Assembly: GCA_963664545.2 (NCBI GenBank)
Contig: OY761475.2
Coordinates: 1,663,247-1,727,246 of the forward strand
Reading direction: 5' to 3'
Source of the DNA: Vicinamibacterales bacterium
GTDB taxonomy: Bacteria; Acidobacteriota; Vicinamibacteria; Vicinamibacterales; UBA8438
DNA: 64,000 bases
Both the position numbers and the translations under genes were made by a program. Within the stretch, counting starts at the first letter, position 1; the number at the start of each line of letters is the position of its first letter. The notes below the pieces were generated by a model. It was not told the origin of the DNA. It worked only from the letters and a program-made list of their open reading frames with translations, and did no database searches. Shown here one piece after another: positions 46,037 to 63,406 of the stretch.

Positions 46037-47518
46037 GTGATCAGGATGTTCCAGTGGGCCCAGATCCGCCACATGCATCTGGTGGAGGGTGTGCCGAAGA
46101 AGGAGGTCGCCCGGCGGTTGAAGCTCGACGTCAAGACGGTGCGGCGGGCCATCGGCCGGCCGACGCCGCCGGTGCGGAGGTCGCCGCCGCGGCCGAGCAG
46201 CCTCGACCCGTGGCGGGAGCGGATCAGGCGGTGGCTGCGCGAGGAGCCGCGGGTGACGGCGAAGCGGATTCGGCGGTTGCTGCTGCCGTTGGCGGGACCG
46301 GTCCCCGCGCGCACGGTGCGGCGCTACGTCGCGGAGCTTCGGGCGGCCGTGTCGCCGAAGGAGGCCTTCGTGCACCGGAGCACCGAGCCCGCGCACACGA
46401 TGGAGGTCGACTTCGGCGAGTCGTGGGTCGACATCGCCGGCGTGCCGTGCAAGGTGAAGTACCTGGTGGCGACGCTGCCGTTCTCCAACGCGTATTTCGC
46501 CAAGGCGTACCCGGTCGAGCGGCTCGAGTCGCTGCTCGACGGCATCGAGTCGGCGTTCCGCTACTTCGGGGGCCTCGTGGACCGCGTCGTCCTCGACAAC
46601 ACCTCGCTGGCCGTCAAGGCCGTGTTGGCGGGCCGGGACCGGGCCGAGACCGAGGCGTTCGAGGCGTTCCGGGGCGGATATCCGTTCCGGGCGGAGTTCT
46701 GCGCGCCGGCCAAGGGCTGGGAGAAGGGTTCCGTGGAGACGGGCGTCAAGTATGTCAGGAACCTCGTGTTCCGGCCGCGGCTGGCGGTCGAGAGCTGGGC
46801 GGCCCTCAACGCGGCGATCATCACGGAGCTGGAGGCCGACCTGCCGACGCGCCAGCTCGAGGACGGGCGTCCGGTCGGGGAGGCGCTGGCGGAGGAGCGC
46901 CGGCGCCTGCGGGCGATGCCCGCGCACCTTCCCGACACCTGCCGCGTCGTCGCGCGGGTGGCCGACAAGTTCGGACACGTCCGCGTGGACCGCGTGACGT
47001 ACTCGGTGCCGATCCGCCACGCCTACCGGCCGGTGTGGGCGAAGCTGTATCACGACCGGGTGGCGGTCGCGGTCGGCACCGAGGTGGTCGCCGAGCATCG
47101 GCGGGCGTTCACGCGGGGCGCGAAGGTCCTCGACGCGCTTCACGTGCTGCCGTTGCTGGAGCGCAAGCACCGGGCGGTGGCCGAGGCGACGGCGCTTCGC
47201 GACTGGCGGCTGGCCCCGGTGTGGCAGCGGGCGCGGACCGAGCTGGGGAGGCACACCCGCAAGCCCGACCAGGAATGGGTGCGGATGCTGCGGCTCATGG
47301 AGACCCATCCGGCGCCGGCCGTCGAGCGGGCGGTGACGGCCGCGCTCGAGCGCCATTCGCCGCGCCTGGAGACGGTGCGGCTCATCCTCCGGCAGCAGGA
47401 GGCCGGCCCGCCGCCGGTGTGCCCGCCGGTCGCGGGCGTGCGTCCGGAGCTGGCGCGGATCGCGGTGCCCGCGCCGAGGCTGTCGGCGTATGACGCGCTG
47501 GTGGAGGGCCCCCGCTGA
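46037..47518 (+). CDS. istA: IS21 transposase IstA
   Basis: HTH 'GVPKKEVARRLKLDVKTVRR' and a DDE core ('MEVDFGES', 'VVLDNTSLAV', 'GWEKGSVE'). ATG 46046, 8 nt after GGAGG, is the likelier start. Confidence 0.9.
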   Translation: MIRMFQWAQIRHMHLVEGVPKKEVARRLKLDVKTVRRAIGRPTPPVRRSPPRPSSLDPWRERIRRWLREEPRVTAKRIRRLLLPLAGPVPARTVRRYVAELRAAVSPKEAFVHRSTEPAHTMEVDFGESWVDIAGVPCKVKYLVATLPFSNAYFAKAYPVERLESLLDGIESAFRYFGGLVDRVVLDNTSLAVKAVLAGRDRAETEAFEAFRGGYPFRAEFCAPAKGWEKGSVETGVKYVRNLVFRPRLAVESWAALNAAIITELEADLPTRQLEDGRPVGEALAEERRRLRAMPAHLPDTCRVVARVADKFGHVRVDRVTYSVPIRHAYRPVWAKLYHDRVAVAVGTEVVAEHRRAFTRGAKVLDALHVLPLLERKHRAVAEATALRDWRLAPVWQRARTELGRHTRKPDQEWVRMLRLMETHPAPAVERAVTAALERHSPRLETVRLILRQQEAGPPPVCPPVAGVRPELARIAVPAPRLSAYDALVEGPR

Positions 47519-48315
47519 TGGCCGCCACGATTACCGAGCCCCCGCACCTGGCCGCGGACCTGAAGGCGCTGCACCTGTCGACGGTCGCGTCACAGTGGCG
47601 GCCCCTGGCCGAGCAGGCGGCCCGCGGGCGTCAGGCGCCGGCCGACTACCTGGCGGAGCTGGTGCACCTGGAGGTGACCGGCCGCCGGGAGCGCCGCATC
47701 CAGCGCCGCATCCAGGACGCCCGCTTCCCGATGCTGAAGACGCTGGACGCCTTCTCGTTCGAGGCGCAGCCGGACCTCGACCGCGACGCGGTCCTGGGGG
47801 TCTTCGACTGCCGCTTCGTCGCCGAGGCCGCCAACGTCGTGTTCGTCGGCGGGGTCGGCACGGGGAAGACGCATCTGTCCATCGCCCTGGGGATGGCCTG
47901 CTGCCAGCACGACTACCGGGTGCGGTTCGTGACCGCGGCCGAGCTGGTCACCCTGCTCGTCGAGGCGCAGCAGCAGGGCCGTCTCGCCCGCAAGCTCGCC
48001 CAGCTCGCCCGCTACGACGTAGTCCACGTCGACGAGCTGGGCTACGTCCCGCTCGACAAGACCGGGGCCGACCTGCTGTTCGGGTTCATCAGCCAGCGCT
48101 ACGAACGCCGGAGCCTGGTGGTGACGACGAATCTGCCGTTCGCGCGCTGGTCCGAGGTCTTCCTCGACCCGACGGCGGCCGCCGCGGTCATCGACCGGGT
48201 CGTGCACCACGCGACGGTGCTGCAGACCACCGGCGACAGCTTCAGGCTGCGGGCCGCCAAGCGGAAGCGGGCGCCGGCCGGGGTGCCGAGCGCCAGTCAC
48301 CGGCCCGTTACGTAA
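47518..48315 (+). CDS. istB: IS21 helper ATPase IstB
   Basis: ATGA overlap with istA. Walker A 'GGVGTGKTHL' and Walker B 'VVHVDELGY'. Confidence 0.9.
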   Translation: MAATITEPPHLAADLKALHLSTVASQWRPLAEQAARGRQAPADYLAELVHLEVTGRRERRIQRRIQDARFPMLKTLDAFSFEAQPDLDRDAVLGVFDCRFVAEAANVVFVGGVGTGKTHLSIALGMACCQHDYRVRFVTAAELVTLLVEAQQQGRLARKLAQLARYDVVHVDELGYVPLDKTGADLLFGFISQRYERRSLVVTTNLPFARWSEVFLDPTAAAAVIDRVVHHATVLQTTGDSFRLRAAKRKRAPAGVPSASHRPVT

Positions 48316-48330
48316 CGGCGAGGAGTAGTC

Positions 48331-48621
48331 GTGGCGTTGACGAACGCGGAGCGGCAGGCGCGTTACCGGGCGCGTCGGAAGGCCGGCGAGTCCCGGCTTC
48401 GGTACCGCCGGCCGGTGGACCGGCGGTCGCGACCCCAGCAGTGGCACGACGCAGTGCAGACGCTGCTGACGCTGCAGGACCAGTATCGGGCGTGGCAGGA
48501 CGCCTTGCCGGCACCCCTCGCCGGGTCCGCGACCGCGGCGTTGCTCGAGCAGGTCTGCGAACTCGACCTGTCGGTCCTGGAGGCAGTCGAGCTTCCCAGG
48601 GGGTTCGGGCGTGACCGCTGA
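48331..48621 (+). CDS. hypothetical 96-aa protein carried inside IS21
   Basis: ORF between istB and the right IR. Basic N-terminus 'LTNAERQARYRARRKAGE'. No family recognised, and coding status is unproven. Confidence 0.4.
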   Translation: MALTNAERQARYRARRKAGESRLRYRRPVDRRSRPQQWHDAVQTLLTLQDQYRAWQDALPAPLAGSATAALLEQVCELDLSVLEAVELPRGFGRDR

Positions 48622-48896
48622 ACCGCCGGCAACAAGCTTCCGGTTGGTGGCTACGACCCGGCGCTGTCGGGCCCATCAGCATGACCGTGTGCTCGCCGGC
48701 GTCAAGGCGCGTCGCTTCGCTCCGCCCCCGCTTCGCGGGGCTGACGGCCTTGACGCCGGCTGCGCGCACGGTCCCGGGCTGGTCTGCCCGACAGCCCCAC
48801 GGAACGCTCAGCCAGGAGGGCCCGGAAATGTGATGTGTTGAGGAGAATTGGGGGGTCCCTTTTCACGTGGCCACGGGGGTCCCTTTTTCAGTTGCC

Positions 48897-50709
48897 ATTT
48901 CCAGCTCATCAAGTACTCCGCTACGCGCCGTCTCGCTGCCGACGCCCTGTCGAGCATCCACACATCGTCTTCACCCAAGACGGTGGACCTGCCCACAGCG
49001 GAAATCGAGGCCTGAAGCTGAGCGCCATTCGCTTCAAGCAACGCCTTGAGTTCCGCCGCGCCACCCCCGCCAATGCTCCAAGGGTGTTTCCGAAAGCGCT
49101 CACGAGGCACATCCGAGGCGCTCGCGAACACGCTTTGCGAGCCTGCATGGTCGATCTGCTCGACTACCGCGGACCAGACCAGCCCCTTCGCGGGATCATC
49201 AGGTGTCGTCGGCTCGCCGCGGATTCCCATCACAGCCCGTAGGCTCCCTTCAACCGGCCGTCGGTGTCGTCCGAACATGATCACCGTCGGCGTTCCGTGA
49301 CCGGGAATGTACGCACCCGAAGTGTCCAGGACATGCGTCAGATCCCAGCGCGGAATGAACTCCTCGATCAGTTTCCTGCCGAACTCCCGCTTCATGAACG
49401 AGTTGGCCGTGATCATCCCGACGAAGCCCGACGCATCCGCGGTTCCGGACGAGGGCGCATGAGCGAGGTCGAAGAAGCGCTCTGTGAACGGTACGGCGAG
49501 CGAGTACTGCCGGTAGCAGGAGCGAAATCGCTTCCGATATTCGGCGTTGAGCGCCATATCCTTCGGCGTGATGTACGGCGGATTGCCGACCACGACATGA
49601 TAGCGCCGACCCAGAATCTCGCGGAGTGCCTCGGCGTGCTCCGTGCGGTAAACGTGGGTCAGCGGGTCGTGCTCCGGATCGAGGTACTCCTGACGTGCGC
49701 CGGCCAGACCCGGGCGTGGTCCGTGGAGCAAGGAGTCGCCCGCCGCCACGTGGAGTTCGAAGGCGGGCGCGTCGGCAAGGCGGCGCACACCAGACGCCTG
49801 GATGGCGGCGACCGATAGTCGGAAGCGGGTGATCGCCGCAGCGAAGGGATTCAGGTCGACCCCGGCTGTCTGTTCGAGCGCGCGGCCGATGCGTTCGCGC
49901 GGATTCGTGCCCGGCTCGTGCCGCGCCCACTGCGCTACCAGGCGTCGGAAGGCACCCAGCAGGAAATGGCCGGAGCCGCAGGCGGGGTCGATCAGCCGCA
50001 CCTCCCGGAACCCGAACTCCTCAATGGCGGGGTCGAGCGTACGGTCGAGGATGAACTCCTCCACGAACTCCGGCGTCTGGAGCAATGCGTACCGCTTGCG
50101 GGCGCTCTCGGACAGGTCCTGGTAGAGGTCTCCCAGGAAGCGCGTGTCCCAGACCGGATCGGTGAAGTCGTGCAGCAGGGCGCCGGAATCGGGGTCGATC
50201 CGCTGCCACAGGCCAAGGAGCCGGCCCGCGGCGTCGCCCGAGGGGGCGCGGAACTCCTCGCCGGGCTGTTCGAGCGACCAGATGGGATTGTGAGCCTCGT
50301 CGAAGATGCGGTCGGCGACGGGCAGCGCGCCCACCGCGCGAAAGACATGGAGCAGGTAGTCGCGGTCGCTCTCTTCGGGGTGCGCCCGAAAGTAGAGGGT
50401 GTGCTCGTCGAGCGCCCGCTGGCGCCGTCCGCCGGGACCGGACAGCCGCGGCGGGTCGACGAGCGCGTTGTCCTCGAGAAACCGCACGAAGACGCAGCCG
50501 AGAATCCAGCCCACCGCCACTTGGGTCAGGTGCTCGTCGCGCCAGGACTCGTAGCTCTCGGCGGTGCGTTCTTGCGCCACCGCCTCGCGGTGCACGCCGC
50601 GGAGGTGCGCCTCCAGGCCGGAATGCTCCCTGCACCGCGCCTGCAGGTCGTCCTCGAGGTCCGCCCGCAGGCGCTTCAGGTCGGCGAGCAACCGGTCTCT
50701 GTCGATCAC
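48897..50709 (-). pseudogene. PglX/Eco57I-like N6-adenine DNA methyltransferase, 3'-truncated by IS21
   Basis: GTG 50709. 'YALLQTPEFVEEFILDRTL', motif I 'LIDPACGSGHFLL' and motif IV 'VVGNPPYI'. From 48896 the reading frame continues into the IS21 IR ('WKWQLKKGPPW...') to a stop at 48808. Confidence 0.75.
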
Positions 50710-51248
50710 GCCGCTTCCTGCCTGACGCGTGCACTACCGGGATCGCCGCCGACCATGCCGTCTCCCGGCCTCGACCGGGAGGCCGGCGGCTCGCGGAGCA
50801 CGCCGAGCGTTCCGTCCGCGCAAGGGGCGCCTCGCAGCCTCACCAGGGGGCGGTCCGGCGACTCGGGCTGCGGGCCGAGCTTCTGGTTCACGCGGTCGGC
50901 CACGAGATCGAGCTGCGCCAGGATGACTCTGCCGATCACCGCGTGCGCGCCCGCCGGTACGACGACGCAGTTGGCCGGCATCGAACGATCGCCGACGCGC
51001 ACGGTCACGGGGCCAGGTACCGGGCGCTCGCGCCGGCGTCCGCCCGCGGGGACGCAGGCAATGCTGCCGACCACCGGGACGCCCAGTCGCTCCACGATGT
51101 CCTCGGGCAGCGCGAGCATCACGGCCCCGGTATCGGCAACCGCCTTGACGCGGGTCCGCCGGACGTTCGCCTCGGGCAGGTGGCGCGCCTGGGCCAGCGC
51201 TCGATCTCCGACGTTCTCCAAGTCGACGTCCGCGACGATTTTGCCCAT
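50706..51248 (-). CDS. retropepsin-like (clan AA) aspartic protease
   Basis: 'VKAVADTGAVMLALPEDIVERLG' D-T-G-A active-site motif and 'AVIGRVILAQLDLVAD'. The stop overlaps the methyltransferase GTG (GTGA). Confidence 0.65.
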   Translation of the reverse strand: MGKIVADVDLENVGDRALAQARHLPEANVRRTRVKAVADTGAVMLALPEDIVERLGVPVVGSIACVPAGGRRRERPVPGPVTVRVGDRSMPANCVVVPAGAHAVIGRVILAQLDLVADRVNQKLGPQPESPDRPLVRLRGAPCADGTLGVLREPPASRSRPGDGMVGGDPGSARVRQEAA

Positions 51249-51454
51249 GCCGGCTCTCGGTGCCCAACTTTAACGCATCGACTCCCTCGCCGTACCGCCT
51301 CGGGGTGCCGGCCGCGACGTTCCTGCATCACGATCCCCGCTCCGCCCAGCAGAGCCCCCGCCAGGTCGGCGTCGCGCCGCGACTGCACAGTTCGGCCGGC
51401 GGGCAAAACGGCCGCCGCAGCTCGTCCACGTTCTCTCGGCCCGCGTCCGCGGGA

Positions 51455-52225
51455 GTGTCGGCGTCGTCGCCGCGGGGCGGACTTTGGCACCTCGGCCGCC
51501 TCGGCGAACCACTGGACCAGCCGCCCGGCCAGCTCGGTGAGCTCGCGCCGCGTCTGCCGACGCCGCGCATGCGGCACACCTGGATGACCGCGAACCGCGG
51601 CAGGTCGTGAACCGTCCGGACGCCCATCCGCTAGACGGCGTTCAGGGAGCGGGCACTGAGCCCCATGGCCGCGAGACGGTGTCGCGGCGCGCCTGCTCGC
51701 CGCCGCCGAACGGGGGCGCCGCGCCGACGGGGTCGGTGTCGGTCGTGGGATGTGCCGCCGCGGCTCGGCCAGCGCCCGTTCGCCGCCCTCCTGCTGCCGG
51801 TCGGCACCTACCGGTGCCGCCGGGAACCCGTAGGTGGGTCGGGCCGGAAGCGCCACGCAGCTCTCCGGCCCGAGAGCACATCGCTGCTCCCCGGCCACTG
51901 GCGTCAGCCTCCCCCAGCGCCCGCATCCCACGCCTCCGCCCCCCGCCTCTGCTGGCCTTCGCTGTTCCGCGCCGGTATCATTCGACCAGAGCGCGACCAG
52001 CTTCAGTCGTCTTCCCTCCACGCCGCCACGCCACCCACACGGGAACCCGCCGCGCTCACGCGAACCGCGGCCCGACAACCGGGAAAACTGGCCATGGCTA
52101 CTTCAACGGAAAGCGCTAACAACCCTCGACGCACTTGAATAGCGCGTCTGCGACAACGCCGACAGCCACCAACCCGTCGAGACTCCACTCGCGACCAACC
52201 GCGCATCATCGCCCGCGTCACCGAA
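51455..52225. repeat. copy A of a diverged direct repeat (decayed HhH-gene 5' end, intergenic region and GHKL-gene 5' end)
   Basis: Aligns by eye with 56920-57127 plus 58529-59195. The HhH reading frame carries a TAG and a frameshift. The 'MATSTESAN' start at 52093 is frameshifted. Homology stops exactly at 52225/52226. Confidence 0.75.
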
Positions 52226-55200
52226 CTATTGTCGGCTCAACCATCCAGTGAACATCTCCTCTACCCTCCACTGAGCCAACTCACAATACCGGTCCAGCTC
52301 TGGATGTTTGGTCACAAGACGTTCCAGATCTGACGATGCTTGATCGGCCCTCGGTGGCGATGTGTCCTCCCAAACGGACGCTGCGGCGCGATAACACGCC
52401 GCCGCCAGCTCGACTTCTCCACGCTTAGTCAACAATTCGGCGACCCAGCTGCGAATGTACCCCTTGTTGAGGTTAGCGCTGCGAGCAGGATCCTCCTCCA
52501 GCAACTGGGCCGACTTCACGTAGCATGTCGACGCGTCCTCCACCTCCCCTTCCAGAAACAAACACCGACCAATGTTGCCGTAGAAGTGCGCGCCTCTATC
52601 AGAAACTCTCTCTCCAGATCGAGTAACGGATCCCAATTCCTCCCCATCCAAAAAAACCCGAAGCGCTTCTGCCACCCGCCCTCCGTCCCGCAAGGACAAT
52701 GCTAGGTTGTGCTTGGTGGAGAATGCGGTGTCCACCGAGCTAACCTCCTTCAGTTTCGCGCCGCGCTCGCCCCAGTGGATAGCTAGTTCGTATCTCTGTG
52801 TGTACCAGTAGCCGTAGCACCGAAGATCGCATAGCAGAATGTACTGTGCACTTTTTCCTGGAATTGCTCGTTCATATCGTTCCAGCAACGGTTCTGCCTC
52901 TGTATGACCAACCTGGATCATCGCAGTCAGACATCGCTCAAATATAGCGTCGAAGTGCTTGTACGCCGTGCAGGCTTCTGCCCAGTCCAGGCCCGAAAAA
53001 AGCCGTAGCCCAAGTCGGATCATCTCTTCCTGGTAGCCTCGATTCAGTAATGGTTCCCCAATCTCTTCAATGGTGTTCGTAGCTTCTTCCAGCTTGCCGA
53101 TGGTAATCTGAAGCTCTGCCTTTCTGGTCCAGTGTTCAAGGATATCATAAGATGGTTCTTTCTGTAGCAGTCCCTTGAATCGGCCGATCATACGGTCAAG
53201 AAATCCCAAAATCGCACCAACGTATTTTTCACGATCCTTCTTCGGAAATCCCGTTCTAACAAACTCGCGAATTATTGGATGCAAACCGAGAAGCGGTTCG
53301 CCCTCCGGTTGGCTTCTGGTTTCTATAAGATGAAAAGATTTCAGCGCCCTGAGAGATCTGTTTACGCGGTTAATGTTGGCCCCGGGAAGCAGATCTAGTA
53401 GTCGACTCTCGGGCTCTGGACGATCCAACTCCGCCATGGTGCGCAAGACAATACGTTGCTGTTCATTTAACATGCCCCAGATCGTTCTTGTCGTTTCCGG
53501 CAGTGTAGCTGCTTCTCTTCCAATTAGATCGAGCGCGCCACGTAGGCCATCTTTGTGGCGAAGAGCTTGCATCACCACTAGGCTTACCCATAGAGGATGG
53601 CCATTAGTCGCTTCATGCAATTCACCGGCAAGGTGATGATCTCGCTGAGGAACACCACGGGCCGCGAGTAGCTCCAGAGTGTCGGACTCCGAAAAGCCAA
53701 CCAGCGTCACTCTCAGCGCACGGGATTCATCCACCTGCACGTCAGGCCGACACGTAAAGAGGAATAAACTCCTGTGGTCGCGTGCTTGAGCCTCTGACAC
53801 GAGGACGTCGAGACCCTTTACCGGCTTAAGCGTCTCAAGATCGACATATTGATCGACGTTGTCAAAAACGAGCAGTGCCCTTCGATCGCGCAGAAGGTAA
53901 AACAAGACACCCACCACCGCCCTGATGTCGCTGACTTCGATCTGGCCAGCGTCTATTGCACCATTACTCAAGCGTTCGATGAGGCGCAACAGTTGGGTGC
54001 CGAGGCGGTCGCTCTCTTCGCGGCAGTCTCGCCAATCCCAGATACCAAAACGCGAAGTATCGGGCATTGCGTATTCCTGTAGGAAGCGTCCGGCAAGGGC
54101 TGACTTTCCTTGACCGCCGATCCCCGTGACAAAAGCGACTGGCATCGTGGACGCGGCAAGCAGTGCGATCTCCCCACTACGACCCACCCAAGGGGCAATC
54201 AGCAAGGGTCTGTCGGACTCGGGTGAAGACAGTGGTGCTGTGGGAAAATCGATCTGCACATGTACGCTACGCGGTCCGACGGAGCGTTCCGTTACGAGCG
54301 TTTGTACGCTTGCGCCAGCGGGAGCTGAAGTCGCGAGAGGATAGCTGGATTGCAGGTCGTTGAGCAGATCTGTGAATAAGGAACAACAGTCAATTCCCCG
54401 GTATAGTTGCACACGGCCGCGGCCGATGCCGGGTCGCAACGCACTCAGCAGCGGTTGGTTGTTGGCTTCGATTTGGTCACCGTCGTTTGAGTGGAACGCC
54501 CAGAGAATCTCGGGGCTACTCGTGGAGTCCGCCAACAGGTCCACGAGCGTAGTGGTAATCACGTCATCCCAACCGCCATATCCGAGGACCACGAGAATTC
54601 CAGAATTGATGACGTGAGCCAGAGAATGGCGAAGTTGGGGCCGGGGCTGAAGCAATTGTTGCGGCGTGTGGAGAGTGTCGTAGCCCCACCAGTATCCGTG
54701 GAGATGCACAATGTGAGTACCTTCAGCGACGGTCTGGCCGAGGGTGCCATCTCCCTGGAGCACGGTACGGTAGCATTGGCCGTGGTGTTTTGCGATGGCA
54801 ATTTCGATTAGAGGGTCGAAGTTTGTGGTCAGAACAGATTGACCAAACGTGTCTTTACAGGCAACGAGCAACCGACCGAAGGAGTCGACTCCCGACGGCA
54901 AGATCCAGGCGTCGGGATGTTTGTCAAGGGTGTTGCATGTGGGGGCGTCGGCATCATTGGCGGTGGTCTCAGGAAGAACGGCGGGCCATGTCTTGGCATC
55001 GAGAGCTTGCCACACTGCTGAGCGCACTACGCGGTTGACAACGTCTTGGCCACGTCTGCCGTGGAGGAACTCAAATGCGTTCTGGTATCGATGGGCGGAA
55101 TTGTCAGATAGGTGTTGTTGGAGCTCGGATTGTGCGTCGGTGTCGGCGAACTCCTTTTTGATTAGATCAATCATGCCGTCCACACCAAGCACGCCATGGG

Positions 55201-55324
55201 CACCCGGGTAATCCGGATAGGACAGGGCGGAGCCGACGAGAAAGACCACGGAGCGGTCGTTTCTGTTGGCGGCGTAGCATAGTCGGTCAACGAGGTCGGC
55301 GGAGATATGGTACCTATTCTGCAT
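52226..55324 (-). CDS. SIR2-STAND(NB-ARC-like)-TPR NTPase, Avs/AVAST type V-like antiphage candidate
   Basis: ATG 55324 follows GAGG. SIR2_2 motifs: 'VVFLVGSALS', 'VLTTNFDPLIE', 'IVHLHGYW', 'LVVLGYGGWDD'. Walker A 'VTGIGGQGKSAL' and Walker B 'ALLVFDNVD'. About 450 aa of TPR-like C-terminus. Sampled lines are about 50% GC versus about 70% in the flanks. Confidence 0.85.
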   Translation of the reverse strand: MQNRYHISADLVDRLCYAANRNDRSVVFLVGSALSYPDYPGAHGVLGVDGMIDLIKKEFADTDAQSELQQHLSDNSAHRYQNAFEFLHGRRGQDVVNRVVRSAVWQALDAKTWPAVLPETTANDADAPTCNTLDKHPDAWILPSGVDSFGRLLVACKDTFGQSVLTTNFDPLIEIAIAKHHGQCYRTVLQGDGTLGQTVAEGTHIVHLHGYWWGYDTLHTPQQLLQPRPQLRHSLAHVINSGILVVLGYGGWDDVITTTLVDLLADSTSSPEILWAFHSNDGDQIEANNQPLLSALRPGIGRGRVQLYRGIDCCSLFTDLLNDLQSSYPLATSAPAGASVQTLVTERSVGPRSVHVQIDFPTAPLSSPESDRPLLIAPWVGRSGEIALLAASTMPVAFVTGIGGQGKSALAGRFLQEYAMPDTSRFGIWDWRDCREESDRLGTQLLRLIERLSNGAIDAGQIEVSDIRAVVGVLFYLLRDRRALLVFDNVDQYVDLETLKPVKGLDVLVSEAQARDHRSLFLFTCRPDVQVDESRALRVTLVGFSESDTLELLAARGVPQRDHHLAGELHEATNGHPLWVSLVVMQALRHKDGLRGALDLIGREAATLPETTRTIWGMLNEQQRIVLRTMAELDRPEPESRLLDLLPGANINRVNRSLRALKSFHLIETRSQPEGEPLLGLHPIIREFVRTGFPKKDREKYVGAILGFLDRMIGRFKGLLQKEPSYDILEHWTRKAELQITIGKLEEATNTIEEIGEPLLNRGYQEEMIRLGLRLFSGLDWAEACTAYKHFDAIFERCLTAMIQVGHTEAEPLLERYERAIPGKSAQYILLCDLRCYGYWYTQRYELAIHWGERGAKLKEVSSVDTAFSTKHNLALSLRDGGRVAEALRVFLDGEELGSVTRSGERVSDRGAHFYGNIGRCLFLEGEVEDASTCYVKSAQLLEEDPARSANLNKGYIRSWVAELLTKRGEVELAAACYRAAASVWEDTSPPRADQASSDLERLVTKHPELDRYCELAQWRVEEMFTGWLSRQ

Positions 55325-55431
55325 GGCTTTTACCTCGCGAAGGGGAAGAAAAGCAGTTGCGGTTGTCGCGGGTGTAGCGGTGGGGTCGGGCGGATGCGGT
55401 TGGCATTCCAGCGAGGGCTCGGCTTTAGACG

Positions 55432-55453
55432 GCCGAGGCATGTATGCCTCGGC
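55432..55453. other. perfect 10-bp palindrome GCCGAGGCAT-GT-ATGCCTCGGC
   Basis: Lies about 110 nt upstream of the SIR2-STAND start, near where GC content drops. Could be an operator or the terminator of the upstream minus-strand gene. Confidence 0.4.
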
Positions 55454-55943
55454 GTCTGCCGACGGTGAAGCGGAGGCCGACCGATGCCCTTGGGGCAGCG
55501 CCGGATGCCTGACGAGGCGCAGGAGGGTAGCCCGAGCCGGTGCTGCGGCGCGGCCGGCGGGCGGCGCGCAGGGAGGTGCGCCAGTGGGTGCCGGCCTCGT
55601 GGGCGGGCGGCGCTCAACCGATCGGACTGGACAGCGCGACCGCGGCACTCCGTGCCGGTGCCATGTGGCGAGGACGACCGCGAGGTCCGCCGTGGCGATT
55701 CGGCCGCGCGTAGCGGCGGCCCCCATCGGGCGGTGGTCCGCGAGAGCCGGTGAGGCGGTGAGCGGCACACCGCTGCTGGAAGCCCCGCTGCATCCCGCTG
55801 GGGCACGTCAGGAAAGTTGGGGATTCGCGGCTGGGGCAAGGACTCGGCGGACCGGCGGATAGATGCCCGTGGGCGTCCCAGCGCGCGACTGGTCCAGCGC
55901 TTGACGCCGACGCCACACCGCTGGGGCCATCCCGCCGGCGCCG

Positions 55944-57127
55944 TCAACCGCCCGACCGGCCGTCGCCGCGTCCGCGGGCGAGGAGCTCCGACGCCGTCGC
56001 GCACTCGATGGCCCAGTCGCCGACCCGCCCGAGCCGCTCCGGGTCCGCGACCCCGGCCAGGGCGGCGGCCAGCCCCTCCGCCGCGGCCGCGTCGAACTTT
56101 CTGGCCGTCAGACGGCAGAGCAGCGCCCGCTCTTTGTCGCGCCTCCTGCTCGATGCCCTGGTCGACGCCCTGCGCCCGCCCCTGCTCGAGCCATTCACGC
56201 ACGTTCTCTTCCAGCATCGTCTAGGCCTCCTGCAACTCCGCCAGCGGCTCCCGTCCGTCCGCCGTCCGCCGGTCCGCCAACCGCAGCCCGTGGCGGAGCC
56301 ACTTCGCGAACGCCCGCGTCAAGTGGTCGTCCGGCGCCGCCCGCAGGGGGTCGATCAGCAGCTTCAGCGCCCCCGCCCAGACGCGCCGCGTCGCGCGTCT
56401 TCTCCAGGCCGACGAGCGCCGACACCCGGTTGTCCGGCGGCAGGTCCGCGTCGGACGTCCACGCCGCGTCCAGAAGATAGTATCGCCGCGACGGTTGGTA
56501 TGGTGCCAGCATCGCGCCCCCGCCGCAACCAGGTCTGCCATCTCGACCGGCGCCGTCCACGGCCGCCGGCCGTTGTAGAGGACGGCGGGCAGCACCGGCG
56601 GCAGGGCCCCCCCGTGCTCGCGGATCGCGCCGTCGGCGTCCAGCCGCTGGTAGAGCAGCGCCGTGTAGGTGAGCATGCGCACCGCCATCGCCGGGTCGAC
56701 GGTGGCCTGTAACTCGAGGAGCAGCACGAGGTAGAGCCAGTGCTCCTCGCCGAAGCGGATGCGCCACAGGAGGTCGCCGTGACGCTGCTGCAGATCTCTG
56801 CCCGCGTCGCGCAGCAGCGCGCGGGAGAGCGTGGACGAGCTGCGGCGGCTCCTTTCTGCTCGCTGGGCGGGCCGCGCAGTCGCGGCGCAACGGCGAGCTG
56901 GCGCGCGGCCCGCCTCGGCGGGAACGTCGTCGTCGGAGTGGACCTTCGGCCCTCCGGCCGCCTCGGGGAACCGCCGGGCCAGCCGCCGCACCAGCTCGGT
57001 GAGCTCGCGCCGGGTCTGGATGCCGACGCCGCGCATGCGGTTCACCTGGATGAGCGGGAACCGCGGCAGGTTGTGAACGGTGCGGATGCCCATCCGCTCG
57101 ATGGCGTTCATGGCGCGGGTGCTGAGC
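55944..57127 (-). pseudogene. Rpn/YhgA-like PD-(D/E)XK nuclease (with DUF4351 tail) behind an HhH module; multiply frameshifted and IS-disrupted
   Basis: Family blocks are spread over at least 3 frames: 'DLLWRIRFGEEHWLYLVLLLELQATVDPAMAVRMLTY...LPPVLPAVLYNG', 'APYQPSRRYYLLD', 'LTRAFAKWL', 'MLEENVREWLEQGRAQG' and 'LLCRLTARKFDAAAAEGL'. Upstream in-frame 'LSTRAMNAIERMGIRTVHNL...MRGVGIQTRRELTELV' is an RpoA-alphaCTD-like HhH. Confidence 0.6.
56920..57127. repeat. copy B (left part) of the diverged direct repeat
   Basis: Matches 51455-51665 of copy A. Interrupted by the IS4 element. Confidence 0.75.
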
Positions 57128-58528
57128 CCATAGGCGCTAACTTGTTTTCCTGACGTGGCTGGCGTATCCTGGCATGCGGAATGCATGACCGGAAGACCGG
57201 CCCGGTGGACGAGGACTGGGATGTGCTGCTGTCGTTCCTTCCGCCGGATTGGCGCGAACTGGCGCGGGACACCGGGGCGTTGAAGGGGCTGCGCAAGGAC
57301 AAGGCGGTCGACAACCTCCTGCGGACCCTCCTGCTGCACCTCGGCTGCGGACACTCGTTGCGGGAAACGGCGGTCCGGGCCCGACAGGCGCATCTGGCGA
57401 GCCTGTCCGACGTGGCGCTGTTGAAGCGGCTGAGGAAGTCCAAGGGTTGGCTGCACGCGCTGTGTGTCCGTCTGTTCGAGGAGCAGGGTCTGGCCGTCGT
57501 CCCCGGGGGCGCGTTCCAGGTGCGGGCGGTGGACGCGACGACGGTGAAGGAACCGGGTCCGAGCGGGTCGCTGTGGCGGCTGCACTACAGCGTGGGCCTG
57601 CCGTCGCTGACATGCGACTTCTTCAAGCTGACGGAGACCGAGGGACCCGGCACGGGGGAATCGTTGGCGCAGTTTCCGATCCGCGCCGGCGACCACGTGC
57701 TGGCCGACCGCGGCTATTCGACGGCCCGGGGGATTCGCCACGTGGTGGACGCGGGGGGGCGCCTGATTGTGCGTGTCAATACCGGGTCGCTGCCGCTGTG
57801 CACGGCGGCCGGTCGGCGGTTCGACCTGCTGGCCGCGGTCGGGTCGGTCACCCGTCCGGGCACCGTCCGGTCCTGGGCGACGACGGTGGAGGCCCCGGAC
57901 GAGCGGGGCGGCCCGGCGCGCGCCATTGCGGGCCGGGTCTGCGTGCTCCGCAAGTCCGCGGAAGCCATCCGCCTGGCGCACCGGAAAGCCCGCCGCGACG
58001 CCGCCCGCAAGGGCAACGAGGTGGAAGCGGCCACGCTGCGGTTCGCCGAGTACGTGATCGTCTTCACGACCTTCCCCGAGCCGCCCTTCTCCGCCGCGGA
58101 CGTGCTGGAGTGGTATCGCCTGCGCTGGCAGGTCGAGTTGGTGTTCAAGCGCTTCAAGTCGCTGGCCCAGTTGGGGCACGTGCCGAAGCGCGCGGACGAC
58201 AGCGCCAAGGCGTGGCTCTACGGGAAACTGTTCGTGGCGCTGCTGGTGGAGAAGCTGATCCACCACGCTCGCGCGATTTCCCCCTGGGGCTACGACGTAC
58301 CGGCGCCGTCGCCCCCGCAGCGCGTGGCGTGACTTCAAGTTCGTGCTCAACCAGGTCACGCGGGCCATCGAACCGCCGCTGCCGCTGGCGCGCATGCTCG
58401 CGGACTGGCGAACGATCTCCGGCGCGCTTGCCGAGCCGCCACGTCGCCGACAGCCCCAACTCTCCGCGTACTTCGGCTGGGTGGACCCGCTGGAGGACCG
58501 AGCGGCTCAAACAAGTTAGCGCCTATGG
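57128..58528 (+). mobile_element. IS4-family insertion sequence with 9-bp target-site duplication
   Basis: IRs are CCATAGGCGCTAACTTGTTT (57128-57147) and its reverse complement at 58509-58528. Direct repeat GTGCTGAGC at 57119-57127 and 58529-58537. The IR/TSD border is ambiguous by 2-3 nt. Confidence 0.85.
57181..58332 (+). CDS. IS4-family DDE transposase
   Basis: 383 aa. 'VRAVDATTVKEPG', 'HVLADRGYS' and 'YRLRWQVELVFKRFKS' (the Y-2-R-3-E-6-K region typical of IS4). Confidence 0.85.
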   Translation: MHDRKTGPVDEDWDVLLSFLPPDWRELARDTGALKGLRKDKAVDNLLRTLLLHLGCGHSLRETAVRARQAHLASLSDVALLKRLRKSKGWLHALCVRLFEEQGLAVVPGGAFQVRAVDATTVKEPGPSGSLWRLHYSVGLPSLTCDFFKLTETEGPGTGESLAQFPIRAGDHVLADRGYSTARGIRHVVDAGGRLIVRVNTGSLPLCTAAGRRFDLLAAVGSVTRPGTVRSWATTVEAPDERGGPARAIAGRVCVLRKSAEAIRLAHRKARRDAARKGNEVEAATLRFAEYVIVFTTFPEPPFSAADVLEWYRLRWQVELVFKRFKSLAQLGHVPKRADDSAKAWLYGKLFVALLVEKLIHHARAISPWGYDVPAPSPPQRVA

Positions 58529-59195
58529 GTGCTGAGCCCCCGTGGTCGCAAGCAGGGTGCGGCCACCGCCGTCCAAGGAGGGCGACCGTCAGACGCCCCC
58601 CCGCGGCCCCGTCGCGTCCATCTGCTTCGACCGTAGCGAGACCATCGGGGCGGAGCGCCGGCAGCACCGCGGCCGCGTGCGCCCGTGCGTCTGGGTGAAA
58701 GCGACGTCGGCCCCGTCGGCGCCCCGTGCCGACCCTGCCGCCGCTCGGCCTGCTCGCCCGCCCTCCTGCTACCGGGCCGGTGCCTACCGGTGCCGCCGGG
58801 AACCCGTAGGTGGGTCGGGCCGGAAGCGACACGTAGCTCTCCGGCCAGACAGCCCATCGCGGCTCCCCGGCCACTGGCGTCAGCCTCCCCTGCGTCCGCA
58901 CCCCACGTCTCCGCCCCCCCGCCTCTGCTGGCCTTCGCCGCCCCACCCCGGTATCATTCGACCAGAGCGCGACCAGCTTCCACCGTCTTCCGTCCGCACC
59001 GCCCAGACGGGGACCCGCCGCGCTCACCCGAACCGCAGCGCGACAACCGGGGGAACTGGCCATGGCAACTTCAACGGAAAGCGCGAACACCCTCGACGCG
59101 CTTGAACAGCGCATCCGCGACAACGCCGACAGCCACCAACCCGTCGAGACTCCACTCGCGACCAGCCAGCGCATCATCGCCCGCGTCACCGACGG
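58529..59195. repeat. copy B (right part) of the diverged direct repeat, running into the intact GHKL gene
   Basis: Matches about 51665-52225 of copy A, with a length difference in the middle. The strongest match runs from 'cctaccggtgccgccgggaacccgtaggtgggtcgggccggaagcg' onward. Confidence 0.75.
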
Positions 59196-60933
59196 AATCT
59201 ACCGCGAGCCCTGGGCGGCTTTCCGTGAACTGATCGCCAACGCCTACGACGCCGACGCAACCCACGTGACGATCGAGACCGGCCAACCCGATTTTCGCGA
59301 AGTGACGGTGCAGGACGACGGCATCGGCATGTCTCCCAGAACGCTCGCGTACGTCCTGACGAACATCGGCGGCAGCTCCAAGAGGACCGCCGCCGGAACC
59401 GCACTGAACACCGCGCGGGCCGACACACCCAATCTCAGCCCCGCCGGCCGCCCGCTGATCGGCAAAATCGGCATCGGCCTGTTTGCCGTCGCGCAGTTGA
59501 CCCAACACTTCCAGATCATCACGAAGGCCGCCGGTGAAAGCCACAGATTGTCCGCGACCGTACAGCTCCGCACTCACGACGAGACCAAAGCTCAGCAGCA
59601 TGACACCGAATACGTCGCGGGACTCGTCGAGATCGTGTCCCAAAGGGTTCCCGAGCACGAACAAGGCTCGCACGGTACGGCCGTGGTGCTCTACCAACTG
59701 CGCGATGAAGTGCGTCGCACGCTCCAGAGCGCCGAACTCTGGAAGGCGGCCTCCGTCGAAACTGACGGCGGTGAATCCGTTCAGAAGCCACCACAATTTC
59801 ACATTGGCCACTCCGCGAACGAGTTGGCTCCCCATCTTCCGTGGCAGGGCTCCGACAGTCCGACCGAACGGTTCCAACAGATCTTTGCCGCCACTCGAAA
59901 AGCAACCGGCGGAACCAAGTCCGCCGACCTGGACCACTTCGACGAGTATCTGCGCCTCATATGGAAACTAAGCTTGTCGCTCCCTCTGCGCTACATCGAC
60001 GGCCATCCTTTCGATCAAGATGCATCCAGCGGCCTTCATCTTCTGGAACTCCCGGAATCGGACCAAGCCCGAGAAATCAAGCTGTCTCCCCAGGAATCAC
60101 TGCGGAGCCATCTCGACCTCCGAACAGCGTGCGATACCGCCGAGATCCCGTTTTCTGTCACTCTAGACGGCGTAGAGCTCCGCCGTCCCATCCGCTTGAC
60201 AGATAAGCTCGAAAAGCCCTCCGGGGTCGGCAAGCCCGTCATGATCGCGGCGAAGCAGAACAACCCGTTTATTCCGGGTATTCTCGATCGTGCAGGCGGG
60301 CGTCTGTCGTTCGAAGCCTACCTTTACTGGAACAGCCGGATCATTCCGAAGGAAACCGTGGGAGTGCTCGTGCGTATCTGCGGGGCTAGCGGGACCCTCT
60401 TTGACCCCACCTTCTTGAACTACAAGGTCTCTGAACAAACACGCTTGCGCCAGATAACCGCCGAGATATTCGTCCATGAGGGGCTCGACAGCGCGATCAA
60501 TATCGATCGAGAGTCTTTCAACTACAGCCACCCCCACTTCTTGTTCATCCAGAAATGGCTACATAGGGCGCTTCGCCTCCTGGCCAACCGCCTGAAGAGC
60601 CTAGCCGCCCGCGATCTCGCGCGGGCCAAAGTGAAACTCCGCGGCGAGGCGCTGGCGTACGCGGTTCAAGTGTGGGCACGGCGCTTGGGTGCCGATGCCG
60701 ATCCGCCATATTCAGATCCACTTGGCGAGTCGTTGCCCGCCGCGGTCGGGGCCGCCGACGTCGATTGGCCCTCCAAGAAGATACTCGACAGTAACGGCAA
60801 ACCCGTGGGGACCGGCCGAATACGCGCGCTGGCCGCGATTTTAGAGGCGTACGGCGTCTTGTCACATCTCGCCGTCGAGGATCGATGCCGGCTCATCACC
60901 GATATAGTTCGTCTTCCCGGGACGAAATCATGA
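59062..60933 (+). CDS. GHKL-superfamily ATPase (Hsp90/MutL/MORC-like, HATPase_c_3-type) with a long uncharacterised C-terminal region
   Basis: N-box 'FRELIANAYDADATHV', G1 'VQDDGIGMS' and G2 'GKIGIGLFAVAQL', in Bergerat-fold order. The remaining about 400 aa have no motif I recognise. Confidence 0.8.
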   Translation: MATSTESANTLDALEQRIRDNADSHQPVETPLATSQRIIARVTDGIYREPWAAFRELIANAYDADATHVTIETGQPDFREVTVQDDGIGMSPRTLAYVLTNIGGSSKRTAAGTALNTARADTPNLSPAGRPLIGKIGIGLFAVAQLTQHFQIITKAAGESHRLSATVQLRTHDETKAQQHDTEYVAGLVEIVSQRVPEHEQGSHGTAVVLYQLRDEVRRTLQSAELWKAASVETDGGESVQKPPQFHIGHSANELAPHLPWQGSDSPTERFQQIFAATRKATGGTKSADLDHFDEYLRLIWKLSLSLPLRYIDGHPFDQDASSGLHLLELPESDQAREIKLSPQESLRSHLDLRTACDTAEIPFSVTLDGVELRRPIRLTDKLEKPSGVGKPVMIAAKQNNPFIPGILDRAGGRLSFEAYLYWNSRIIPKETVGVLVRICGASGTLFDPTFLNYKVSEQTRLRQITAEIFVHEGLDSAINIDRESFNYSHPHFLFIQKWLHRALRLLANRLKSLAARDLARAKVKLRGEALAYAVQVWARRLGADADPPYSDPLGESLPAAVGAADVDWPSKKILDSNGKPVGTGRIRALAAILEAYGVLSHLAVEDRCRLITDIVRLPGTKS

Positions 60934-61967
60934 CGATCGCCGACGACGTTCTGCCCGCCGAAATCGCGGATCCGGCGGTGCCTGTCCCGCTTGACCGATT
61001 GCTCCCGTGGCATCAACCCCGGAAGCAACTGGTGAGGGAGGAGCAGTGGCTCCGGCTTTCGCGACGACTTATCAAGGCGGAAAGCAGCCGGTTGGGGTCT
61101 TCCGCGCAAGGCGGCGAGCGACCGGAGATCCGGTACTTGACGCTGCCGGGGATCGACTACATCGATGTACGGCAGCTCGCCGACGTGTGTCGCGACTGGA
61201 ACTGCCGCTTGACCAGCATTGGTTTTCACGCGGGTGACGGACGAAATCCGCAGGTCGCGCGGGCGAAGTTGCGGGAAAAGTCACTGATCGACGCCGGTTG
61301 CATTACCCGTCACTCGCACACCTATGCTAGGCGGTTTGAGGACATCAGCGAGACCAGCAGCAATGCTTACCAAGATATCGAACAGCGGGGACCATTTCAT
61401 ATAGTAAATGTTGATGCGTGCGGATCGCTCGCTCCACCTACTGCGAAGCACGCCCGGCGGCTGGTCGAGGCGGTTTTTCGGGTCGTGGAGCTGCAGTTTC
61501 AAAAAACGACTGGCCGGTGGTTGCTATTTGTCACTACGGACGCCCGCCGGGAATCCGTGTCGGGAGAGACCTTGGAGAGGCTTTGTCAGACCATATTCAA
61601 GAATGCCGATGAAAACGCCGGCTTTCGCGGCGTGGCGGCTCGGCTTCTCGATCCGGGAGCGGTTGACGTCAGAGCGGCAGCGGAGAGCGCGACGGAGCAG
61701 ACCGGTCTCGCATTTCTGAAACTGTTTTCCCTAGGGCTGGCCAAGTGGCTACTGCATTTGGCGCAAGGAACGAAGCGAGAAATGCAGACACATAACTCCT
61801 ACTGTTACTCTACGACAGGTAAAGGTGACCGCAGGCCGTCGATGGCGTGCTTGGCCTTTGAGTTTCTTCCGCCGCCGCCCGGCCTTGAGGATCCCTTCGG
61901 GGTTTCCCGTGCTCGACCGACGCGGAATCCGCGGCCTGGAGCTCAGGGATCCCCTCATTTTCATTAG
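60930..61967 (+). CDS. hypothetical partner protein of the GHKL ATPase
   Basis: ATG 60930 overlaps the GHKL stop (ATGA). 'YLTLPGIDYIDV' and 'FHIVNVDACGS' loosely recall strands 1 and 4 of Rossmann-type methyltransferases, but there is no Gly-rich SAM loop. Family unknown. Confidence 0.5.
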   Translation: MTIADDVLPAEIADPAVPVPLDRLLPWHQPRKQLVREEQWLRLSRRLIKAESSRLGSSAQGGERPEIRYLTLPGIDYIDVRQLADVCRDWNCRLTSIGFHAGDGRNPQVARAKLREKSLIDAGCITRHSHTYARRFEDISETSSNAYQDIEQRGPFHIVNVDACGSLAPPTAKHARRLVEAVFRVVELQFQKTTGRWLLFVTTDARRESVSGETLERLCQTIFKNADENAGFRGVAARLLDPGAVDVRAAAESATEQTGLAFLKLFSLGLAKWLLHLAQGTKREMQTHNSYCYSTTGKGDRRPSMACLAFEFLPPPPGLEDPFGVSRARPTRNPRPGAQGSPHFH

Positions 61968-62057
61968 AAGTCAACAGAACGAGCCCTTTCCTTGACCGGA
62001 GATTTTTTCCCTGCAAGACGTTGCAAAATGTTGCCCGTCCGGGTACTATATTGACCC

Positions 62058-63242
62058 ATGCGCATGCATCAGAAACCGTCAAAGGCCGGTGCCCGACTGA
62101 TCGAGAGACGAGATCTCATGAACTTCATAACCACGTTGCACGACGGTGATTTGCATGCCAAACGCGTGCTATCGTTGGCCAATGCAACCTTGGGTGTGTT
62201 GGCGAGTGCCTCTCTCGCGATCCACGCTGTGGGACGTGGCTTGGCCCAAGCTATGGGCACGTTAACCAAGCACGGTGTGAAACAGGTGGACCGGCTCCTG
62301 AGCAATCAAGGCGTTGACGTCTGGACTTTCTTCGCCTGTTGGACGCCGTACATCGTTGGTGCTCGCGAGGAAGTGGTTGTCGCGCTGGATTGGACTAGCT
62401 TTGCCTCCGACGGGCAGGACACGATCGTGCTGTCGATGCTGACCGGCCATGGCCGCGCGACGCCCCTGCTGTGGAAGACCGTGGAGACATCGACTCTGAA
62501 GGGCAACCAGCGGCGCTACGAGTACGAAGTGCTGTCCCGGTTGCGGGAGGTACTGCCGGCTGGGGTGAGGGTTACGGTCGTCGCGGATCGGGGCTTTGGG
62601 GATTGCAAGCTGTTCTACCTGCTGACGGAGGAGCTGGCCTTCGAATACGTGATTCGGTTGCGCGGAGACATCTACGTAACGAATGCACGGGGCGACCAGC
62701 GGCTGGCGGCGGACTGGGTCGGCTCTCGGGGCCGTGCGCGCCGATTGGTGGGTGCCCGGGTGACCGATGCTCACGAATGGCCCGTGGGTGCCGTCGTGTG
62801 TGTACATGATCGGAAGATGGACGAACCGTGGTGCCTAGTGGCCAGCGACGCGAAGGTACCCACGCCGGTGTTGATCCGGTACTACGGCAAGCGCTGGGGC
62901 ATTGAAGCGGGCTTTCGGGACATCAAGGACATGCGCTTCGGGATGGGTCTGTCGTCGATGCGCGTTTCGAGCCCGGGTCGCCGAGACCGGCTATTGCTGA
63001 TCAGCGCGCTGGCCATCGCGGTGTTGTCGTTGCTAGGTGCAGCAGGCGAGCGCATCGGCTATGATCGCTGGCTGAGGGCGAACACAGTGAAGCGGCGCAC
63101 ACATTCTCTTTTTCGACAAGGTTTGATGCTGTATCACCATCTTCCCAATTGGTCCGACGACCGGGTTCGCCCATTGATGGAAACGTTCGGAAAGATGCTG
63201 CTGGAACACCGGGTATACCGAGAGGTCTTCGGCGTAATTTGA
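62058..63242 (+). CDS. IS4-family DDE transposase (element ends not identified)
   Basis: 'VVVALDWTSF', 'VTVVADRGFGD' and 'YGKRWGIEAGFRDIKD' are DDE/YREK blocks. I could not find convincing terminal IRs by eye. Confidence 0.8.
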   Translation: MRMHQKPSKAGARLIERRDLMNFITTLHDGDLHAKRVLSLANATLGVLASASLAIHAVGRGLAQAMGTLTKHGVKQVDRLLSNQGVDVWTFFACWTPYIVGAREEVVVALDWTSFASDGQDTIVLSMLTGHGRATPLLWKTVETSTLKGNQRRYEYEVLSRLREVLPAGVRVTVVADRGFGDCKLFYLLTEELAFEYVIRLRGDIYVTNARGDQRLAADWVGSRGRARRLVGARVTDAHEWPVGAVVCVHDRKMDEPWCLVASDAKVPTPVLIRYYGKRWGIEAGFRDIKDMRFGMGLSSMRVSSPGRRDRLLLISALAIAVLSLLGAAGERIGYDRWLRANTVKRRTHSLFRQGLMLYHHLPNWSDDRVRPLMETFGKMLLEHRVYREVFGVI

Positions 63243-63406
63243 CGTTGAAACGGAAAATGAGGGGATTCATGAGGGCCTGGAGATACCTCGCTCAGAGCGG
63301 CGGAGAAGGTACGCGACATGGCCGATGTCGATAAGCTCATGGCCGACGACCGCGAGCTTCGCAAGCGTATGACACGGGATCTGCGAGAGTGTCTCGAGGA
63401 GGCGGG

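Follow-up and report, generated by a model that had tools for sequence, protein, structure and literature searches.

Genes and features of the locus

The DNA analysed here (the window) is a 64,000-nt stretch of a Vicinamibacterales genome (G000:C1:1663247-1727246, where G000 is the host genome of ~7.3 Mb, with a 7.27-Mb chromosome contig and 71% GC). It carries a diverged direct repeat, copies A and B, which brackets a predicted defence gene (SIR2-STAND). The repeat lies in a pile of defence genes situated between pglW and pglX, two genes of a type 2 BREX (bacteriophage exclusion; Pgl) system. The A/B repeat is one of several recombination scars in this ~21-kb pile, and not the footprint of one clean cassette insertion. 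The open reading frames (ORFs) of the array were scanned with Pfam, PADLOC profiles were used for PglW and PglX, and PglW was compared to the local region by tblastn. Positions past the window end at 64000 are given as extended coordinates, i.e., genome position minus 1663246.

Read in the direction of pglW transcription, the array starts with intact pglW, an unknown ORF, a full-length Rpn gene, a protease gene, a second unknown ORF, a 5′-truncated Rpn gene and a second protease gene. Next come PglW fragment D and a HigA-like gene, followed in the opposite orientation by a C5 methyltransferase gene, an insertion sequence (IS), a partner gene, the GHKL ATPase gene and its upstream region. The array ends with PglW pseudogene B, the SIR2-STAND gene, a relic GHKL start with its upstream region (opposite orientation), PglW fragment A, protease copy 1 and pglX. 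Four co-oriented copies of a pglW segment (A, B, D and the intact gene) divide it into three cargo blocks: SIR2-STAND with a nested Rpn; a triad of GHKL, partner and C5 methyltransferase genes together with the HigA-like gene; and two protease-Rpn units. In all, the array holds three Rpn copies and three copies of a retropepsin-like protease. The features that make up the repeat, the bracketed block and the PglW fragments are as follows.

51334-51761, minus strand: PglW pseudogene fragment A, corresponding to pglW 73175-73611 (residues ~812-958, the HhH region resembling the RNA polymerase alpha-CTD); 83.5% identical, with one stop and one frameshift
51774-52093, plus strand: GHKL upstream region of copy A, 86% identical to 58748-59061
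52094-52224, plus strand: relic of the first 44 GHKL codons, with 7 substitutions, a +1 and a -1 indel; ends at a novel joint
52226-55324, minus strand: predicted SIR2-NB-ARC/NACHT-TPR (Avs-like) single-gene system, 1032 aa, low GC
55492-55609, minus strand: C-terminal piece of PglW pseudogene B, corresponding to pglW 71898-72014 (residues 1344-1383), 84% identical; lies within the read-through part of the long SIR2-STAND ORF
55936-56799, minus strand: Rpn pseudogene B (YhgA-like, Transposase_31), lacking residues 1-123 and frameshifted; 85-89% identical to the full Rpn gene at extended 68971-70263
56788-56821, minus strand: 34-bp piece of PglW pseudogene B, corresponding to pglW 72322-72355, 97% identical; a CTGCAG microhomology links it to Rpn
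56825-56911, plus strand: 85-bp PglW segment (pglW 73194-73278), flipped in B relative to A and intact pglW
56904-57128, minus strand: HhH piece of PglW pseudogene B (left part of repeat copy B), corresponding to pglW 73278-73512, 88-91% identical
57129-58527, plus strand: IS4-type element (DDE_Tnp_1, 383 aa), 1399 bp, with terminal inverted repeats and an 11-bp target-site duplication; eight genome copies
58539-58565, minus strand: end of PglW pseudogene B, reaching ~pglW 73545 (residue ~834)
58566-58747, no strand assigned: copy-B-specific stretch of ~180 bp, with no match in copy A, pglW or the rest of the genome
58748-59061, plus strand: GHKL upstream region of copy B, pairing with 51774-52093
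59062-60933, plus strand: intact GHKL ATPase gene (HATPase_c_3), the first 44 codons of which form the right end of copy B
Extended 65841-66053, co-oriented with pglW: PglW fragment D, corresponding to pglW 73366-73575, 92% identical

The diverged direct repeat

Local alignment after excision of the IS paired copy A (51437-52224) with copy B (56906-57128 plus 58539-59192). These limits are close to those of the initial annotation (51455-52225 against 56920-57127 plus 58529-59195) and refine them. The alignment spans 903 columns, of which 674 are identical (88% when gapped columns are set aside), and the repeat, first put at about 0.7 kb, is real and ~0.75 kb long. blastn and a self-comparison of 50000-61000 were run alongside. 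The self-comparison gave a chain of direct matches (51482-52224 against 56944-57129 plus 58775-59192) at 84-100% identity, and exact matches of 46-48 nt are present. By blastn, 51774-52224 matches 58748-59192 (E=1e-150) and 51465-51663 matches 56925-57129 (E=4e-47), values which exclude GC-rich, low-complexity sequence as the source of the similarity. The alignment has a gap-rich zone (A 51680-51773 against B 58560-58747), and a segment of 82-85 bp just left of the direct homology is flipped between the copies (A 51359-51438, B 56822-56903).

Copy B is split by the IS4-type element, as originally described. This element is a 1399-bp DDE_Tnp_1 insertion with an 11-bp target duplication (GGTGCTGAGCC at 57118-57128 and 58528-58538), and its eight copies in the genome are at least 99.8% identical, indicating that it inserted recently.

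The right end of the repeat is the start of the GHKL ATPase gene, again as proposed, with the first 44 codons found in both copies and the intact gene in B. The decay reported for copy A was also seen: its HhH frame has one stop and one frameshift, and in-frame stops arise in its GHKL start from a +1 and a -1 indel. The 7 substitutions between the copies in these 44 codons (three at third, three at first and one at second positions) follow a pattern that does not discriminate between import and duplication in place. Homology ends at 52224 in A and 59192 in B, leaving the single base 52225 before the SIR2-STAND stop codon (52226-52228). The joint is sharp, although one base short of the exact abutment described at first.

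PglW pseudogene fragments

The minus-strand part of the repeat had been taken for the 5′ end of an HhH gene. tblastn, and blastn against intact pglW, identified it instead as an internal piece of PglW. The intact gene lies beyond the window end (extended 71635-76047, minus strand) and is an uninterrupted frame of 1470 codons. Its product matches the PADLOC PglW profile (PDLC02512) with E=0 over positions 2-1396 of 1403, and carries NERD, protein kinase and RNA_pol_A_CTD domains by Pfam. This architecture agrees with that described for PglW (PMC12839542), which supports the PglW identity of the 'HhH' part, and the 1470-aa gene is, as predicted from its sequence, the PglW of a type 2 BREX system.

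When copy A was used to search the whole genome, further copies turned up just past the window end, and tblastn matched residues 817-935 of PglW to A, 842-922 to B and 827-895 to D. The same PglW piece is present four times within 22 kb, so that A and B are not a unique pair. The 5′ boundaries of the three fragments fall at residues 812, 824 and 834, i.e., within 66 bp, in the linker that joins the second kinase domain to the HhH region, while their 3′ ends scatter. Identity to intact pglW declines with distance from it (D 92%, B 88-91%, A 83.5%). All of the fragments group in the clade of the resident pglW, and in a comparison of 155 columns A and B show almost no common branch relative to pglW.

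The pieces of pseudogene B are collinear with pglW 71898-73545. Compared with pglW, the pseudogene has lost 838 bp by deletion, carries 85 bp in flipped orientation at their original place, and has a truncated, frameshifted Rpn where 307 bp would be. The joints are microhomologies of 4-7 bp (e.g., CTGCAG between Rpn and pglW), suggesting illegitimate or template-switch joining and not site-specific recombination. No short inverted repeats able to explain the 85-bp inversion were found, only imperfect direct motifs and microhomologies. Likewise, the 188 bp specific to B, the segment 55609-55936 and the region upstream of SIR2-STAND gave no informative match across the genome.

The pglW-pglX junction in related genomes

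The initial annotation placed the bracketed block at a conserved protease-HhH-GHKL defence locus, and an 'empty' version of this site was looked for in relatives. The 21 other genomes of the genus were searched, all of them species representatives (22 genomes with G000). None carries such a locus (0/21), and no empty site was found among them. A DNA query with the right part of copy B across the 22 genomes returned only the GHKL gene of G015, and a GHKL protein search of the genus gave this one ortholog only, at an unrelated site.

PglW is present in nine of the 21. In five loci (G005, G015a, G006, G011 and G020) pglX starts within ~150 bp of the pglW stop. The junction is occupied by an IS in G012, and by a set of HTH, M78-peptidase and DUF6791-ThiF genes in G015b. 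That of G010 (positions 4200-13900 of G010:C1:494000-513999) holds an ABC-type ATPase gene and two Rpn genes; the two Rpn units are 96-98% identical, and after each comes a diverged copy of the pglW 3′ end (its final 160-175 bp), making two such copies. The ABC-type ATPase has a weak, below-cut-off match to ParB_N. A retropepsin-like protease gene directly follows pglW in G009. In the host genome, homology to relatives is lost four codons short of the pglW stop and picked up again ~25 bp upstream of the pglX GTG, which indicates that the DNA from ~50735 to ~71647 (~20.9 kb) is an insertion in G000. Cargo is thus found at the junction in four of the nine pglW-pglX loci examined (G000, G010, G012 and G015b). 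As judged from these sequences, the conserved frame is pglW-pglX, and its junction is a recurrent cargo site in the genus.

SIR2-STAND, GHKL and other cargo

The SIR2-STAND gene starts at ATG 55324 and not at GTG 55768, since homologs of 1030-1037 aa align with full coverage and the 148 codons upstream are high-GC read-through that includes a PglW fragment. Pfam matches to SIR2_2 and NB-ARC lie above the cut-offs, and those to NACHT and TPR below them. The gene is predicted to be an Avs-like single-gene defence system with a SIR2 effector, a STAND NTPase and a TPR sensor. As noted from the start, it is lower in GC than its surroundings (0.48-0.58 versus 0.71 for the genome). Homologs with source names come from other phyla. 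The closest lies on a TARA scaffold (847-3953; 78% nucleotide and ~84% amino-acid identity), where it forms a low-GC island in a high-GC contig and is split into ORFs of 801 and 231 aa. Comparison of the flanks of the TARA contig found nothing shared beyond the SIR2-STAND stop codon, and so no cassette ends. The low GC, the homologs in other phyla and the lack of a shared TARA flank together indicate that SIR2-STAND is foreign.

The low-GC foreign DNA is limited to 52226-~55440 (~3.2 kb) of the bracketed block. The idea that the whole block is one foreign cassette therefore does not hold, because 55492-56911 consists of PglW pseudogene pieces and a truncated Rpn, families that are repeated elsewhere in the array. 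The Pfam match of this Rpn (55936-56799) begins at profile position 48, and the Transposase_31 PD-(D/E)XK domain is incomplete.

The remaining cargo genes are listed here.

50706-51248, minus strand: copy 1 of the retropepsin-like aspartyl protease, overlapping the pglX GTG with its stop codon
60930-61967, plus strand: GHKL partner gene, no Pfam family; next to the GHKL gene in four other genomes
63407-64000, minus strand, continuing past the window end: C5 cytosine methyltransferase gene, the third conserved gene of the GHKL cassette
Extended 66267-66704 and 68414-68851, beyond the window: protease copies 2 and 3

The set of GHKL gene, partner and convergent C5 methyltransferase gene (59062 to extended 65077) is kept in the Vicinamibacterales metagenome-assembled genome (MAG) G015, in an Albidovulum MAG and in two gammaproteobacterial MAGs. 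It spans Acidobacteriota, Alphaproteobacteria and Gammaproteobacteria, with GHKL amino-acid identities of 51-71%. The triad is a predicted mobile three-gene unit, and its sequence suggests a restriction-modification-like system of three genes and not two. The G015 cassette, the sole ortholog in the genus, has no PglW fragment nearby.

The two protease-Rpn units are tandem copies with 93% identity (extended 66258-67634 and 68405-69758). In the unit farther from pglW, Rpn (extended 66825-67628) lacks residues 1-170. The retropepsin-like protease is a multi-copy family that, among the relatives searched, is found only in this genus (18 of the 21 congeners), and a fourth copy in the host genome (G000:C1:1169289-1169708) follows the displaced half of pglX described below. 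PglW fragment D contains the start of the long ORF of the HigA-like antidote gene (dnstrm_HI1420, HTH_3; L021:1418-2053), and upstream of this gene no partner toxin gene was evident.

Origin of the repeat

The arrangement is best accounted for, with modest confidence, by serial recombination guided by pglW homology, which stacked cargo between pglW and pglX and left A and B as corresponding ends of two related units. The two copies have the same composite junction, in which a PglW fragment is followed by the GHKL upstream region and GHKL codons 1-44, indicating that both descend from one such junction. The duplication accounts for a single novel joint, 52224/52225. The A unit has lost all that followed GHKL codon 44, and SIR2-STAND lies one base past the break. 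At least three successive intervals of the form PglW fragment, cargo, PglW fragment can be recognised (A, B, D, then intact pglW). The 93% identical protease-Rpn tandem duplication shows the array to be recombinationally active, and G010 bears the same signature in support, with cargo and Rpn genes followed by diverged copies of the pglW 3′ end.

Each round would have relied at one end on homology derived from pglW or from a unit and at the other end on an illegitimate joint, by either a single crossover or an unequal exchange. A cargo block would be added, and the older, decaying PglW fragment pushed toward pglX. In the A unit, SIR2-STAND would have replaced the GHKL cassette after codon 44. 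The PglW fragments and the relic GHKL start probably have no function of their own, while the repeats may still be substrates for deleting or reshuffling the SIR2-STAND block. A variant put forward at the outset, the replacement of cargo in one of two tandem paralogous loci, is closer to this account. Neither an integrase nor a circular form nor an empty site was found.

The same final order could be reached by two routes: unequal exchange in place with deletion in the left copy, or a crossover with DNA of a related Pgl locus. Whether the partner unit of copy A was duplicated in place or imported from such a locus is about an even choice. The A/B divergence of 12-14% equals between-species distances in the genus and, together with the near-absent common branch of A and B, leans slightly and weakly to import or to an old event.

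Several observations weigh against serial stacking. No relative with an intermediate or empty state occurs among the genus genomes, and the sequence of events was deduced from a single genome. The stretch between the PglW and GHKL-upstream parts is 94 bp in A and 188 bp in B, a replacement that needs an extra event. The gradient of identity to pglW is based on 155-440 aligned bases. No recombinase was found in the array besides the Rpn genes and the IS transposases. Finally, alignment of the flank of D to the GHKL upstream region of A and B scored no better than shuffled sequence. Because D lacks this flank, simple copying of one unit does not account for the 5′ boundary that the fragments have in common.

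A tandem duplication in place is a possible but less probable account. The segment from SIR2-STAND through the PglW pseudogene to GHKL codon 44 would have been duplicated by unequal exchange, the left copy would then have lost SIR2-STAND and the 3′ PglW pseudogene, and both copies would have drifted to 12% divergence. This yields exactly one novel joint and the observed topology. Tandem duplicates also exist next door (93%) and in G010 (93-98%), and all of the fragments belong to the resident pglW clade. Copy A has the uninverted, collinear order of pglW, so the inversion and deletion in B could be later. However, an extra deletion is needed at 51280-51334, and a neutral divergence of 12-14% is as large as differences between species (pglW of G000 and G015b are 92% identical), yet the cargo is absent from other species. 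The almost missing common branch of A and B relative to pglW also counts against it.

The clustered fragment starts could be given more weight. If the kinase-HhH linker of pglW were a preferred recombination point in this lineage, cargo carrying a pglW homology arm could have been stacked there serially, possibly helped by Rpn, each event leaving pglW intact plus an orphan PglW C-terminal fragment. We consider this improbable. If true, it would mean gene-targeted exchange of cargo or sensor halves in type 2 BREX systems.

Doubtful, too, is a displacement of PglW C-termini, in which incoming sensor halves (HhH, three wHTH, inactive STAND) recombined at the kinase-HhH linker and orphaned the old halves downstream, as in Rhs/CdiA, with cargo arriving alongside or later. 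Three fragments do start within 66 bp at this domain boundary (812-834), co-oriented and downstream of pglW, and fragment B still reaches residue 1383; the C-terminal half of PglW is described as a fast-evolving sensory module (PMC12839542). However, what is left of the C-terminal part of B has 84-97% identity to the resident gene and does not represent a different variant, A and D are only 200-430 bp long, and the pattern comes from one genome, with G010 repeating just the last 55 codons.

The Campbell-type integration first suggested, in which a discrete foreign circle bearing SIR2-STAND and Rpn entered a conserved protease-HhH-GHKL locus through the 0.7-kb homology, is as unlikely. Part of the idea survives: two co-oriented direct copies flank the block, with one sharp joint (52224/52225), a topology expected from a single crossover or an unequal exchange, and a recombinational origin of the layout is supported. 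The inner boundaries are novel joints while the outer flanks continue into native context, and the exact matches of 46-48 nt could support RecA pairing. The insert, however, is not one discrete foreign unit, as a third of the 'element' is PglW pseudogene and Rpn of the array families with normal high GC. The proposed target locus is absent from all 21 congeners, and no empty site was found. No integrase domain was detected in the Pfam-scanned ORFs of the array and no att core was seen; the repeat ends are microhomology joints. The layout also recurs between B and D and between D and pglW, so that one event is insufficient.

An assembly mis-join can be dismissed almost entirely, in keeping with the first assessment, as A and B diverge at 12% of positions and also by indels, the flanks of each are unique, and both lie within a 7.27-Mb contig.

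The broken BREX frame and insertion sequences

The features at the pglX side of the array, and the remaining IS, are the following.

45897-48904, plus strand: IS21-family element (ORFs of 521 and 273 aa), 3008 bp, six near-identical genome copies; truncates pglX
48905-50709, minus strand: N-terminal half of pglX, matching the PADLOC PglX profile over 1-585 of 1189 (ORF 48808-50709)
61942-63273, plus strand: second IS (DDE_Tnp_1), six or seven near-identical copies; between the GHKL partner gene and the methyltransferase gene

The IS21-family element interrupts pglX at 48904/48905. The C-terminal half of the gene lies 545 kb away on the opposite strand (G000:C1:1166293 onward), beside an inverted copy of the same IS (G000:C1:1163285-1166292). 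The flanks of the two halves have a common 4-bp duplication (CTCA), and the reading frame is kept when they are joined, indicating that pglX was split by an IS-mediated chromosomal inversion of 545 kb. This inversion explains why the IS21-family element in the window lacks a matching target duplication. The displaced half (region G000:C1:1163285-1168945) is further broken by a copy of the IS4-type element, and a weak Pfam match to PglZ occurs near it at G000:C1:1175855. A type 2 BREX (Pgl) locus is expected to carry PglW with an intact PglX beside it; here PglW is present and an intact PglX is not. From its gene content, the locus is predicted to be a decayed type 2 BREX (Pgl) system, in which pglW itself is still intact.

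An 85-bp palindromic repeat near the end of the IS21-family element (48686-48770) also occurs at several other sites in the genome, and in G015 it flanks the GHKL triad on both sides, inverted (L023:17307-17388 and L024:3042-3129). It may be an element resembling a MITE (miniature inverted-repeat transposable element) or a REP (repetitive extragenic palindromic) sequence.

Comparison with known systems

The analysis corrects the annotation of this locus: what had been labelled HhH genes are fragments of PglW pseudogenes, the SIR2-STAND protein has 1032 aa, and the locus around them is a type 2 BREX system in decay. The PglW fragments, stacked in one orientation, are a record of the growth of a defence island by recombination and not by a dedicated integrase. 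Their shared boundary, if general, would point to modular exchange at a PglW domain border.

The prophage e14 and phage 21 integrate at icd, duplicating the 3′ end of the target gene. The present locus is similar in that the insert is bordered by diverged direct repeats of a portion of the target gene, with the upstream gene intact. It differs in that no tyrosine or serine integrase or att core was found, and in that the repeated piece is an internal segment at a domain boundary (the 3′ end in G010).

Rhs and CdiA arrays carry orphan C-terminal modules. Here, too, co-oriented truncated copies with similar start positions lie downstream of an intact gene. Unlike those arrays, they have no alternative C-termini or immunity genes, and are decayed and interleaved with unrelated defence genes.

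Recombination-promoting nucleases of the Rpn (YhgA-like) family have been described as gene-within-gene toxin-antitoxin systems for phage defence (bioRxiv 10.1101/2023.05.02.539157). Rpn genes of the Transposase_31 family recur at the pglW-pglX junction, with three in G000 and two in G010. The copy in the bracketed block is truncated and frameshifted, and any part played by Rpn in forming the joints is hypothetical.

Auxiliary effectors at BREX loci have been catalogued (PMC12839542). PARIS lies inside the type 1 BREX locus of Salmonella D23580, and BrxU is found with the BREX of pEFER (PMC11341690). As in those cases, unrelated defence systems sit between core BREX genes, and the host locus serves as a frame for cargo. 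In contrast, the host locus here is a type 2 (Pgl) system, the site is pglW-pglX, at least three blocks are parted by pseudogene copies of a flanking gene, and the BREX system itself is broken. Overall, the array is an instructive but unsurprising example of defence-island mosaicism, already known in kind. What is specific to it is the type 2 locus, a pglW-pglX site that recurs across species, and a stack of PglW pseudogenes with a common start.

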